From IMG/VR virus record IMGVR_UViG_3300047275_000180, positions 1 to 29,809 of that record: DNA of 29,809 nucleotides, one strand, 5' to 3'. Within the stretch, counting starts at the first letter, position 1; every line of letters starts with the position of its first letter. Position numbers and translations under genes: made by a program. The notes under the pieces are model-generated. The model was not told the DNA's origin, ran no database searches, and saw nothing but the letters and a program-made list of their open reading frames with translations. Below are positions 22,909 through 29,092 of this stretch, one piece after another. The stretch comes from a virus. Lineage: Duplodnaviria > Caudoviricetes.

Positions 22909-22974
22909 CTCCTTAAAAGACCCGCGAGGGCATAGACAGATAGTAAGCTAGCTTTACGCAGTAGTCAAGCGGTC
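22909..22974 (-). repeat. Promoter/leader direct repeat, copy 2
   Basis: Aligns with 23444-23513 (CTCCTTAAAAGACC...GCAT.GACA.ATA.TAAGCTAGCTTTAC...GTCAAGCGGTC). Confidence 0.9.
22940..22968 (-). promoter_or_regulatory. Leftward sigma70 promoter PL2 with operator AAGCTAGCTT
   Basis: Minus strand TTGACT-17 nt-TACTAT; palindrome at 22945-22954. Confidence 0.8.
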
Positions 22975-23140: not shown

Positions 23141-23437
23141 TTACTTGCTTGCAAACTTTTGAATAAAAGCCTGCAATTTTGCAACTTCGTTTGCAGCCCA
23201 GTTGTATTCTTGTTCGCCGTATTCGCCGATGTACGAATCGTTGTTTATGTGACCAGACTCAAAAAAAGTTGACAGGACGTATTTGGCTTCTGCCAGAACT
23301 TCTTTGCGGGTATAACTTTCAAGTGTGCGCTTATCGTCGGCGCTGATGTTTTCCATCACGGTCATTAATTCTTGGCTTTCCATTGCATCAGCCCAAAAAT
23401 TACGGTGGTTTGCGGTTTGTAAATATGATCTTGGCAT
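23141..23437 (-). CDS. Hypothetical early protein, first gene of left operon
   Basis: 98 aa, SD TAAGGAG; no HTH or S24 peptidase motif, so not CI-like. Confidence 0.7.
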   Translation of the reverse strand: MPRSYLQTANHRNFWADAMESQELMTVMENISADDKRTLESYTRKEVLAEAKYVLSTFFESGHINNDSYIGEYGEQEYNWAANEVAKLQAFIQKFASK

Positions 23438-23443
23438 GGCTGG

Positions 23444-23513
23444 CTCCTTAAAAGACCGTTAGCTAACGGCATGGACACATATTAAGCTAGCTTTACACCT
23501 TTGTCAAGCGGTC
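23444..23513 (-). repeat. Promoter/leader direct repeat, copy 1
   Basis: Aligns with 22909-22974. Confidence 0.9.
23479..23507 (-). promoter_or_regulatory. Leftward sigma70 promoter PL1 with operator AAGCTAGCTT
   Basis: Minus strand TTGACA-17 nt-TAATAT; palindrome at 23484-23493. Confidence 0.85.
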
Positions 23514-23514
23514 T

Positions 23515-23543
23515 TTGCAAAATATTTTAAGCTGGCTTACAAT
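23515..23543 (+). promoter_or_regulatory. Rightward sigma70 promoter PR with operator TAAGCTGGCTTA
   Basis: TTGCAA-17 nt-TACAAT; ATG follows 6 nt later. Confidence 0.82.
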
Positions 23544-23549
23544 CCGCGC

Positions 23550-23708
23550 ATGGACACTAAAACCGCGATTTCCCTAGCTGGCAGCGCCACAGAGCTTGCC
23601 AAATTGCTAGGTGTTACAAGACAGGCAATAAGCCAATGGGGTGAAAACTTGCCGCAGCAGCGCATTTGGCAGCTACAGGTATTGCGACCCAAATGGTTTA
23701 AGAGCTAA
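23550..23708 (+). CDS. cro: Cro-like HTH repressor, leaderless (not in ORF track)
   Basis: MDTKTAISLAGSATELAKLLGVTRQAISQWGENLPQQRIWQLQVLRPKWFKS; classic LA..LGVT.QAISQW HTH. Confidence 0.88.
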   Translation: MDTKTAISLAGSATELAKLLGVTRQAISQWGENLPQQRIWQLQVLRPKWFKS

Positions 23709-23711
23709 AAT
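23682..23711 (+). promoter_or_regulatory. Possible promoter for the structured RNA / rep leader
   Basis: TTGCGA-18 nt-TAAAAT ending 5 nt before the RNA stem. Confidence 0.4.
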
Positions 23712-23715
23712 TTGC

Positions 23716-23784
23716 GAAACCCGGCTAGGTGGGAAGTCATGAGCCCACCGAAGAGAGACTCCGCCCCTCCTGCCGTTGGTTTTC
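23716..23784 (+). ncRNA. Putative structured cis-regulatory RNA (3-way junction) upstream of rep
   Basis: GAAACC/GGTTTT + CGGC/GCCG; GGTGGG/CCCACC; AG.GAG/CTC.CT with loop ACTCCGCCC. Confidence 0.6.
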
Positions 23785-23814
23785 CTTGTTGGGCGGAACA
23801 ATTTAGGGCGCGAC

Positions 23815-24480
23815 ATGAAGATCAGAAACTGGTCGAAATTTCAGCATTTCAAAGATCGGCGACCACCGTGGATCAAACTGTATCGAGACATTCTCGATGA
23901 CATCAACTGGCACCAACTCGACCCGCTTGCTAGCAAGGTGCTAGTCATGTGCTGGCTTATCGCTAGCGAAGACGAGGGCCGTATTCCTGACGTAAAAACA
24001 TTGGCTTTCCGATTAAGAATGTCAGAAAAGCAAACTTCTGAATGCCTTTTCAAGCTGTCTCATTGGCTGGAACAAAGTGATAACGCGATGATATCGGAGC
24101 GATATCAGGATGATGATCCAGAGACAGAGACAGAGACAGAGACAGAGGAAGAGAAAGAGAAAGAGATAGAGAAGAGAGAGAAGGTGCAGCGCGGGACGCG
24201 CTTGCCTGCTGATTGGCAACCATCGGAAGAAGAAATTATCTATTGCAAAACGAATCGGCCTGATTTGGATTGGCGTAACGTTGCCGAAAATTTTCGCGAT
24301 TATTGGATTGCTCAGCCTGCTGGCAAGGCAACCAAAATCGATTGGGTTGCTACTTGGCGGCGTTGGGTTAGAAATGAAAAGAGTGCAAGAAAGTTTGAAA
24401 GCACACGGGACGCTGAACGCAGAAAAGTTATCGAACAAGTAATGGGGGTGAAAAATGACCGAATTATCGACATCAACTAA
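23815..24480 (+). CDS. Replication initiator (O-like / replisome organiser)
   Basis: MKIRNWSKFQHFKDRRPPWIKLYRDILDD, ETETE linker, RGTRLPADW..FRDYW..DW.ATWRRW; follows cro. Confidence 0.8.
   Translation: MKIRNWSKFQHFKDRRPPWIKLYRDILDDINWHQLDPLASKVLVMCWLIASEDEGRIPDVKTLAFRLRMSEKQTSECLFKLSHWLEQSDNAMISERYQDDDPETETETETEEEKEKEIEKREKVQRGTRLPADWQPSEEEIIYCKTNRPDLDWRNVAENFRDYWIAQPAGKATKIDWVATWRRWVRNEKSARKFESTRDAERRKVIEQVMGVKNDRIIDIN
24079..24184 (+). other. Putative replication origin: phased iterons followed by purine-strand tract
   Basis: GATAAC/GATATC/GATATC/GATGAT at 24079, 24090, 24101, 24112; then (GAGACA)x4 at 24121-24144 and an A/G tract. Confidence 0.55.
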
Positions 24481-25132
24481 GCCAGTTACGCAGGGCTGGA
24501 TTGACGCGCTGTTCGTGAAAATGCTCAACACCTTTGGCAGCAGGTTTGCCGATATGTGGCGCGGCACAGACATTGATTCCGTAAAGGCAACATGGGCACC
24601 GGAGCTGTCGAAACTTAGCCGGGAAGAATTTACAAAAGGTGTTCATGCTTTGGCAACATTAAACTGGCCGCCGACGCTTGGTGAATTCGTCAACCTTTGC
24701 CGACCAAAGATCGACCCGCAAAAAGCCTTCACAGAGGCCATAAACGGGCTTCTGGCGCGAGATCGGGGCGAGGTTGGTACTTGGAGTCATCCGGCGATAT
24801 TTTGGGCTGCTGTGCGCGTTGGTGCGTTTGATATAAAAAACGCAACTTATCCGCAAATCAAGGGTCGATGGGAAAGCGCACTTGGCGATGAGTTAGAAAA
24901 ATCGCAATGGCAGGAAATTCCAAAGCCTGTGATCGCGTTGCCTGTGGCAAAAGTTTCGAAGGAAGTTGCAGAAAAATATGTTGCAAAGCTGCAAGCGCTT
25001 AATGTAGAGTCAAGCCAGATTGACCATAAGCGCTGGGCGAAGCGGATCATGGAACGGCACCAGAGGGGCGACAAAACCCTTTTGCCGGTGCAAGTGTCAA
25101 TGGCTAGGGCAGCGCTGAACGCACCGACTTGA
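24455..25132 (+). CDS. Replication protein P-like helicase loader
   Basis: LF..M...FG.RF.DMW, WPPTLGEF..LCRP, WSHPAIFWAA; follows initiator. Confidence 0.65.
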   Translation: MTELSTSTKPVTQGWIDALFVKMLNTFGSRFADMWRGTDIDSVKATWAPELSKLSREEFTKGVHALATLNWPPTLGEFVNLCRPKIDPQKAFTEAINGLLARDRGEVGTWSHPAIFWAAVRVGAFDIKNATYPQIKGRWESALGDELEKSQWQEIPKPVIALPVAKVSKEVAEKYVAKLQALNVESSQIDHKRWAKRIMERHQRGDKTLLPVQVSMARAALNAPT

Positions 25133-28638: not shown

Positions 28639-28854
28639 ATGAGCGATGTCCGTTGCAAATCCTGCCGATTCTTTACGCAAGCTCAAGTCATGGGCTTGTG
28701 TCGTCGTTTTCCCGAAACTCAAAACAAGCACGAAATGGACTGGTGCGGCGAACACCAGTTGAGCGTCGTCACGTCGGTGCCGGTCTATGACGTTATGGCG
28801 CAAGCGGAACCTAAAAAAAGAGGGAGGAAACCCAATGTTAAAGCCGTTGCGTGA
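28639..28854 (+). CDS. Small Cys4 protein with basic tail
   Basis: CKSC..GLCRRFP..DWCGEH; KKRGRKP. Confidence 0.65.
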   Translation: MSDVRCKSCRFFTQAQVMGLCRRFPETQNKHEMDWCGEHQLSVVTSVPVYDVMAQAEPKKRGRKPNVKAVA

Positions 28855-29092
28855 TCGTATTGTTGTCAAGCCTGAAGTCCGCAGACTGTCGGACATTCTT
28901 TATGTTCCCAACAAGGAACCGTTTAACGAAGGCACGGTGGTAGCAATTGGCCCAGCGGTGCGCGACACGAAGGTGGGCGACTTTGTTAAATACGGCAACG
29001 GCAGCTATTTAGACTGGCCTATTCATGAGTTTGAAGGGCAGGACTACCAGATTATCCAAGAAGCTGATGTCGCCATGATCGTGGAGCATTAA
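28835..29092 (+). CDS. groES: Co-chaperonin GroES (cpn10)
   Basis: LKPLRDRIVV..GTVVAIGP..KVGD.V.Y..Y.II.E.DV; SD GGAGG. Confidence 0.85.
   Translation: MLKPLRDRIVVKPEVRRLSDILYVPNKEPFNEGTVVAIGPAVRDTKVGDFVKYGNGSYLDWPIHEFEGQDYQIIQEADVAMIVEH

Follow-up and report, generated by a model that had tools for sequence, protein, structure and literature searches.

An int-alpA-like leader RNA with a two-site specificity loop and a self-complementary second loop upstream of a phage replication initiator gene

Introduction

The int-alpA motif (RF02996) is typed as "Gene; sRNA" in Rfam and is common, yet it has been catalogued without a known function. The motif is said to go back to Weinberg et al. 2017. 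In the literature searched, it occurs as a table entry and as a gene-order label, with "RF02996" itself unmentioned, and the term "alpA" is absent from the accessible portion of the main text of PMC5737381.

Several functionally described RNAs invite comparison with the locus reported here. The loops of C4 RNA are complementary to parts of the operon that encodes it, and systems of the repZ type include a leader peptide. For repZ of the IncI plasmid ColIb-P9, the accessible part of PMC8383071 describes a leader loop that pairs near the ribosome-binding site of the initiator gene and sets its translation; there, an opposite-strand antisense RNA blocks the activating pseudoknot. In the case of IsrK from Gifsy-1, translation rises about 140-fold when the short form acts in trans by binding the long isoform of the same RNA. 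This activation is by strand invasion, and the available text on it (PMC4825925) makes no mention of "kissing".

Kissing loops are also found in retroviruses, RNA viruses in which they function in dimerizing and packaging the genome. GACG loops of MoMuSV form a kissing homodimer of two base pairs (PMC7357161), and the palindrome of the HIV-1 DIS is flanked by conserved purines (accessible parts of PMC7357161 and PMC516450). Within the accessible literature on structured phage RNA, self-complementary leader loops and bacterial RNA homodimers, we found no leader with homodimerization as its input.

Here we describe an RNA located between cro and rep in a viral contig of 29,809 nt, which was analysed over its whole length and is referred to as the window. 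By analogy, this leader may work like the repZ pseudoknot with respect to the position of its target, and perhaps also like IsrK, in that it would act on the message of which it is part; it belongs to neither system.

Results and discussion

Gene context and coordinates of the leader

The virus record is linear, 29.8 kb long and 88% complete; the contig may be incomplete. Its early region is lambdoid. A cro-like gene for a helix-turn-helix protein (23550-23708, + strand; Pfam P22_Cro, E 4e-14; PHROG regulators) is followed by the replication initiator gene rep (23815-24480, + strand; PHROG replication and replication-initiation families, E 8e-16 to 6e-8), the first gene of the controlled message, and then by the gene for a P-like helicase loader (24455-25132; phrog_109, E 3e-16). 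Relatives start at the methionine of MKI(K/R)NW, so that translation of rep is not taken to begin at an in-frame TTG at 23776. Neither Peptidase_S24 nor an integrase was matched in this 88%-complete contig, and the sole HTH_3 match is cro. The first leftward gene (23141-23437, - strand), at the position of lambda CI, has no match in PHROG or Pfam.

The int-alpA-like three-way-junction RNA occupies 23716-23783 on the + strand, as delimited by the match to the Rfam model and by the alignment of relatives. Stem P1 (23716-21/23778-83 plus 23722-25/23772-75) contains a TT bulge at 23776-77. It is followed by junction strand J1/2 (UA, 23726-27), stem P2 (23728-33/23744-49) with its predicted kissing loop (23734-23743), J2/3 (GAAGA, 23750-54), stem P3 of 3 bp (23755-57/23767-69) with the specificity loop ACUCCGCCC (23758-23766), and J3/1 (CU, 23770-71). 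A U-rich tract (23779-23790) at and after the 3' end of P1 forms the linker to target T1 and is a possible termination tract. T1 (GGGCGGA, 23791-23797) and T2 (GGGCG plus flank, 23806-23813), which lies in the ribosome-binding region, are both complementary to the P3 loop.

Directly before P1, a consensus match to a sigma70-like promoter (TTGCGA-18 nt-TAAAAT, 23682-23711, + strand) predicts a transcription start near the 5' end of P1, at about 23717. This promoter-like site, which the earlier note had missed, overlaps the last codons and the stop of cro. Of 154 unique upstream regions among relatives, 68 have a TAnnnT hexamer whose end is 14-16 nt away from the TAG of the junction, and no position more than 17 nt away has more than 5. 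This fixed distance, together with the site in the window, makes it likely that the RNA is the very 5' end of the rep message. Relatives in which another gene lies upstream still show, on inspection by eye, the -10-like hexamer.

Relatives sampled

A search with the rep N-terminus returned 233 viral loci, of which the best 80 were taken; the closest among these (L001) has a rep N-terminus that is 92% identical. In these best 80 of 233, the element directly before rep is an int-alpA-like RNA in 32, an unrelated structured leader in 37 and something else in 10, and is cut off in 1. With two loose patterns, for which about 2400 and 860 matching stretches are estimated in the viral collection, a further 120 + 120 viral loci were sampled; stem filters were passed by 88/120 and 83/120. 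A pattern scan of bacterial genomes gave mostly chance matches (5/120 loci pass the stem filters). The search of 151 genomes with RF02996 gave 20 matches in 13 genomes, 19 of them over the cut-off. From 460 loci and the window, 255 parse as junctions and 213 pass the stem filters.

Since the filters and patterns fix stem pairing, percentages of paired stems are partly so by construction. They leave untouched the loops and the sequence downstream, and it is on these that the key tests were made. Loci of doubtful appearance (e.g., L099, L101, L133, L273, L340 and L381) were retained in the set. The exact window-specific pattern had no match in viral contigs, and BLASTn against annotated phages returned five records, all of which cover the rep gene only.

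Relation to the int-alpA family

The whole window has no match to Rfam at the gathering cut-off. Compared with int-alpA itself, it reaches 23.6 bits (E 0.014), which is below the cut-off of 35.8. The 12 carriers of the RNA among 20 scanned loci all match the model, and three pass (L001, 38.1 bits; L013, 36.0 bits; L010, 35.9 bits), the nine others scoring 29.2-33.9 bits. The alignment extends over the whole model, and its UAG, GAAAA (GAAGA in the window) and CU junction strands are present. We treat the window RNA, on this comparison, as a divergent int-alpA homologue below the cut-off and not as a filed member. For the earlier note, an Rfam hit would have removed novelty: the RNA does match int-alpA and close relatives pass the cut-off, but the window itself stays below it.

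The three-way junction with UA, GAAAA and CU strands is shared with int-alpA. In contrast, the window has a longer P2 (6 bp with a 10-nt loop), a P3 of 3 bp and a score below the cut-off, and its RNA lies between cro and rep, whereas canonical int-alpA lies behind an integrase gene. The context that can be read from the family name (integrase before, alpA after) is thus not that of the window; among the canonical matches, all six tested upstream ORFs code for integrases and three of seven tested downstream ORFs for AlpA. The Rfam structure line is without a pseudoknot, and the model ends at T1. The 20 canonical matches have two targets as well (-8.3 and -6.6 kcal/mol, vs -6.2 and -4.1 kcal/mol when shuffled) and likewise carry palindromic or GACG P2 loops. 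We consider the self-complementary P2 loop to be a new element; the supplement of Weinberg 2017 may already describe the T1 pseudoknot or a palindromic loop.

Three-way junction

Folding of the single sequence is not above shuffles (z = 0.09), and the junction is a near-optimal but not the optimal fold of the window. The case for it therefore rests on the relatives. The window was aligned with 62 of 80 unique long-P2 cores (63 sequences). RNAalifold returns the junction from this alignment, with double changes in 9 of 13 pairs; of the 21 named pairs, 15 show double changes. The covariation score of the named pairs is 0.459, compared with 0.161 upon shuffling and at most 0.104 in slid registers, and 200 cells carry double changes vs 61 in the shuffled control. 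J2/3 reads GAAAA in 154 of 161 unique cores and GAAGA, as in the window, in 7/161, while J3/1 is CT in 160/161. The + strand shows many G-U pairs, with 20 at one P1 pair and 16 at the first pair of P2; this is what an RNA of that strand should show. We conclude that the three-way junction is real, a conclusion supported by covariation and not by single-sequence folding.

The earlier note had drawn this junction from the window alone. P1 with its TT bulge, P2 and all other named elements were found at the positions it had given, except that its P3 of 5 bp (23752-57/23767-71) has to be abandoned: relatives support 3 bp, and 23750-54 and 23770-71 are conserved junction strands, so that the loop comprises 23758-66. 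The comparison of relatives that it had called for gave covariation both for the stems and for loop versus target.

P3 loop and its two targets

As the earlier note had it, TCCGCCC (23760-66) in the P3 loop is perfectly complementary to GGGCGGA (23791-97), and CGCCC in the same loop is complementary to GGGCG (23806-10), which ends 4 nt before the ATG at 23815; sequences and coordinates check out. On its + strand, the window has a single copy of TCCGCCC and a single copy of GGGCGGA. Pairing of the loop is computed at -14.5 kcal/mol with T1 (7 bp) and at -10.6 kcal/mol with T2.

Pairing of the P3 loop with the downstream 50 nt of the same locus was computed for 107 unique loop types and amounts to -10.7 kcal/mol (best site) and, after masking, to -7.8 kcal/mol (second site). 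The corresponding values are -7.05 and -4.4 kcal/mol for non-cognate downstream regions (z -17.9 and -19.9; 0 of 20000 permutations each), -7.6 and -4.7 kcal/mol for the own region when shuffled, and -6.2 and -3.2 kcal/mol for coding sequence. When the downstream regions of 106 other members are offered, only 1 (best site) and 4 (second site) better the pairing of the window loop with its own. Two sites of -5 kcal/mol or better exist for 90 of the 107 loop types and are lacking for 17. Loop and targets change together, as is seen from the sets CGCCC/GGGCG, CACCC/GGGUG, CACCUU/AAGGUG, AGACCC/GGGUCU, CGUCA/UGACG and UGGUA/UACCA. Based on these comparisons, we regard the predicted pairing of the P3 loop with two sites as robust.

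The spacing is regular. P1 and T1 are separated by a median of 6 nt, as are T1 and T2, and a median of 4 nt lies between T2 and the start codon (74 cases with a start found); the distance from the junction to T1 is nearly fixed at about 17 nt. Counted in register, T1 and T2 are 10-15 nt apart in 70 of 85 cases, which would leave room for two helices at once. This spacing does not grow with the length of P2 (14.1 nt with short P2, 12.3 nt with long P2) and is thus not simply an effect of the length of a dimer arm. As a Shine-Dalgarno sequence, T2 is the better one in 46 and T1 in 36 of 85, which is hardly a difference, and T2 of the window is weak in this respect (-4.5 kcal/mol).

P4 CI and P1 C4 RNA, which the earlier note had invoked, are likewise small structured phage RNAs with loops complementary to sites in their own operon. 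The analogy holds as a resemblance only. In the window, both targets lie at most 30 nt downstream and none upstream; across relatives, pairing with the own upstream 50 nt (-5.2 and -3.3 kcal/mol) is no better than controls. Their Rfam families gave no match at E up to 10 in 23400-24000, where only int-alpA was matched. It is thus quite improbable that the RNA is an immunity-type small RNA, released as a short form that acts in trans on T1 and T2 of incoming or own messages, mainly by premature termination and free of kissing. In favour of such an RNA are its own promoter-like site and the U-tract, and 107 loop types are a diversity of loop/target sets that might stem from escape from a resident repressor. 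CI RNA itself pairs with seqA and seqC (accessible part of PMC4825925). Apart from the missing upstream target and Rfam match, this explanation is at odds with the position of T2, which is tied to the start codon, and with a contig in which no integrase or CI was matched.

The U-tract itself differs between subgroups, with a mean of 5.7 T in 10 nt where P2 is long (93 cores) and of 3.5 where P2 is short. As the tract is weak in the latter, termination to give a short form may be limited to some members. In the window, the tract at 23779-23790 is absent from the results of the terminator scan.

Self-complementarity of the P2 loop

The P2 loop of the window contains the self-complementary hexamer UCAUGA (23737-42), with three purines on its 5' side and one on its 3' side; the earlier note had missed this property. 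A palindrome of at least 4 nt is present in 33 of 45 unique P2 loops (167 of 198 members), whereas shuffled loops give a mean of 14.3 and a maximum of 24 (0 of 5000 reach the observed count). Palindromes of 6 nt occur in 11 of the 45, compared with 1.7 expected. P3 loops, taken as control, have palindromes in 5 of 101. The 12 P2 loop types devoid of a 4-nt palindrome include GACG.

Self-complementarity has been kept while the sequence changed, as there are ten different central 4-mers among the palindromes. In the 63-sequence alignment, loop columns 24/27 are C-G in 27, A-U in 18, G-C in 14 and unpaired in 4 of 63, and columns 25/26 are A-U in 48 and G-C in 15. Being adjacent, the latter two cannot pair within one strand, yet they covary. 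Self-pairing of P2 loops amounts to -4.5 kcal/mol vs -1.1 kcal/mol for cross-pairing, and a partner in the own transcript was found in none of four regions, which include leader, coding sequence and upstream sequence (z -0.5 to -1.1). Of 29 loops in which its position is unambiguous, the palindrome lies towards the 3' side in 24, in the centre in 5 and towards the 5' side in none (a further 4 are ambiguous). Among the 20 canonical int-alpA matches, 7 loops parse as GACG tetraloops (8 by eye), 9 are palindromic and 3 are neither by eye; loops of L456 and L460 were counted by eye, and L449 and L458 are near-duplicates. The loop types are related, so that these counts are not independent events. 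Loop types recombine: in the long-P2 group, 12 of 42 P3 types occur with more than one P2 loop.

In these features (self-complementarity kept through change, a 3' offset, or GACG), the loops have the sequence properties of kissing-loop homodimers. They resemble the HIV-1 DIS and the MoMuLV/MoMuSV GACG loops in presenting a purine-flanked palindromic hexamer in a hairpin loop, or a GACG tetraloop. The retroviral loops act in RNA virus genomes and the present ones in a bacterial mRNA leader, which makes this an analogy and not a homology. We consider it likely, judging from sequence, that the P2 loops of two RNA copies pair with each other.

The cores GATC, CATG, AGCT and AATT are typical modification sites. 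They thus bear on an explanation at the level of DNA, in which the palindrome would be an operator or methylation site and loop, T1 and T2 would be protein-binding repeats. The test at the ends of the loop/target helices is compatible with this explanation, as G-U (39) vs A-C (51) was null (p 0.25) and RNA pairing is not favoured. At a DNA site with two-fold symmetry, or in an inverted repeat that had been perfected, the palindrome would presumably be centred in the loop, but it lies off the axis of the flanking inverted repeat. In addition, G-U pairs are present in the stems, a GACG loop is no palindrome at the level of DNA, and the cores differ between L017 and L018 although their Cro proteins are similar. 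DNA-level elements are thus a very improbable alternative. Avoidance of CATG in the window is mild (observed/expected 0.81) and uninformative. A leader peptide starting at the loop AUG (23739) was also considered and rejected, because the AUG is not conserved (a CATG core in 3 of 45 loop types).

Proposed mechanism

With confidence somewhat short of even, we propose that the leader is a self-association switch, in which a lone leader leaves rep translatable and a docked second copy represses it. The message of rep would start with the folded leader which, when alone, would have its P3 loop parked on T1, paired first and in cis, so that rep could be translated. A second copy would dock P2 loop to P2 loop by a kiss between molecules, and its P3 loop would then cover T2 and shut off translation. 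The partner may be a short form that ends in the U-tract before T1 and thus has a free P3 loop, or a second message in a swapped dimer. This would result in negative feedback on the concentration of leader RNA, which in turn would track the copy number of phage DNA. The parts from which this mechanism is built are those brought out by the comparison of relatives: the junction, a P3 loop complementary to T1 and to T2, the placement of these two sites, a P2 loop complementary to itself, and a promoter-like hexamer that keeps its distance from the junction. As T1 is transcribed first and is usually the stronger site (64 of 107 loop types, and also in the window), the lone message is most likely on. 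A single loop with two targets suggests either an either/or switch or two loops, and the self-complementary P2 loop would supply the second copy.

An either/or switch might also act in cis only. The P3 loop would then toggle between T1 (on) and T2 (off) depending on a protein, the ribosome or the speed of transcription, and the P2 palindrome would have another role, such as protein binding, RNA storage or decay. The two sites are indeed mutually exclusive for a single loop. In addition, T1 mostly uses a more 3' part of the loop than T2 (48 vs 19, 23 equal), allowing strand exchange, and the distance from the junction to T1 is nearly constant. A cis switch gives no account of self-complementarity that was kept through ten cores lacking a cis partner, and binding of a protein should have conserved the sequence of the site. 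We thus rate it as rather unlikely.

The P2 loop evidence fits equally if self-association activates, with the lone message off by pairing of the loop with T2 and a second copy freeing the ribosome site, as in IsrK or the repZ pseudoknot. The short form of IsrK, with its effect of about 140-fold on translation of its own long isoform (accessible part of PMC4825925), is a precedent, and the distal site is equal or stronger in 43 of 107 loop types. In the window, however, T1 is stronger (-14.5 vs -10.6 kcal/mol) and made first, and an added P3 loop would cover only more target, never less. Positive feedback would also fit nucleases poorly. Activation by self-association is therefore improbable in our view.

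Repression by a docked second copy, the mechanism which we favour, shares individual traits with both systems. As for repZ, the P3 loop is complementary to a site beside the ribosome-binding site of the initiator gene. In contrast to repZ, the leader has two targets, its loop AUG is not conserved, and a consensus scan found no promoter-like site on the minus strand between 23510 and 24290 from which an antisense RNA might start. The likeness to IsrK is that of a phage leader whose short form may set the translation of its own read-through message in trans; Rfam gave no IsrK match here.

More tentatively still, int-alpA-type leaders in general could be widespread RNA switches that need no ligand and gauge the number of their own copies, one loop kissing and the other covering the ribosome-binding site of the partner, while independent shuffling of the loops creates many groups that do not cross-react. 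If so, phages and integrated elements would have a protein-free control of copy number, and possibly exclusion, for initiators, primases, nucleases and antirepressors. Provided that the P2 loops do kiss, the RNA would be a bacterial mRNA leader with homodimerization as its input, an RNA-only concentration sensor, and its two swappable loops would be a ready set of orthogonal parts. If they do not, it would still be a well-supported two-site translational leader.

Controlled genes

From 102 ORFs downstream of the RNA, 56 were picked for variety and scanned. They code for initiators or primosomal proteins (10), primase-like proteins (5), nucleases (7), antirepressor/Rha-like proteins (5), ParB-like proteins (2), tail chaperones (2) and others (5); 20 are without a match. 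The genes behind the leader are thus often dose-sensitive, which speaks for the proposed self-association switch. Tail assembly chaperone genes, found behind the same leader in L353 and L402, are outside the replication and nuclease theme.

Control of initiator synthesis by loop/target pairing, as suggested in the earlier note, is a predicted function supported by the covariation of stems and of loop and target. Its further suggestion that the RNA replaces a missing CI repressor is not supported, as the same RNA occurs behind integrases in integrated elements and 37 of the 80 rep relatives (best 80 of 233) have an unrelated leader.

Additional observations

This second structured leader (e.g., L012:1383-1500) precedes the same rep family in those 37 of the 80 loci (L001-L080, best 80 of 233), and in 6 more of the same 80 it is located about 440 nt further upstream. 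Its stems covary (8 of 33 pairs), and its closing stem is followed by 7-8 U. By eye, it contains two pseudoknots, formed by an invariant UUGGCGG/CCGCCAA and by a covarying 6-nt pairing. Five loci were scanned against Rfam at E up to 1, with no match. Two further hairpin-rich leaders, distinct from these, precede rep homologues at L007:1400-1500 and L044:745-875, also with no Rfam match.

In the window, a leftward promoter-like segment of 46 nt is duplicated (22929-22974 and 23468-23513; 85% alike). Its spacer carries the palindrome AAGCTAGCTT (22945-54, 23484-93), of which a copy with one mismatch (23529-38) is found before cro. These copies are likely, from their sequence and arrangement, to be Cro operators. 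Inside rep, four purine-rich repeats with a spacing of 12 nt (24119-24172) encode an ET/EK-rich stretch; they could be origin iterons or low-complexity coding sequence. The region 28787-29092 encodes a GroES-like co-chaperonin (phrog_3188, E 2e-8).
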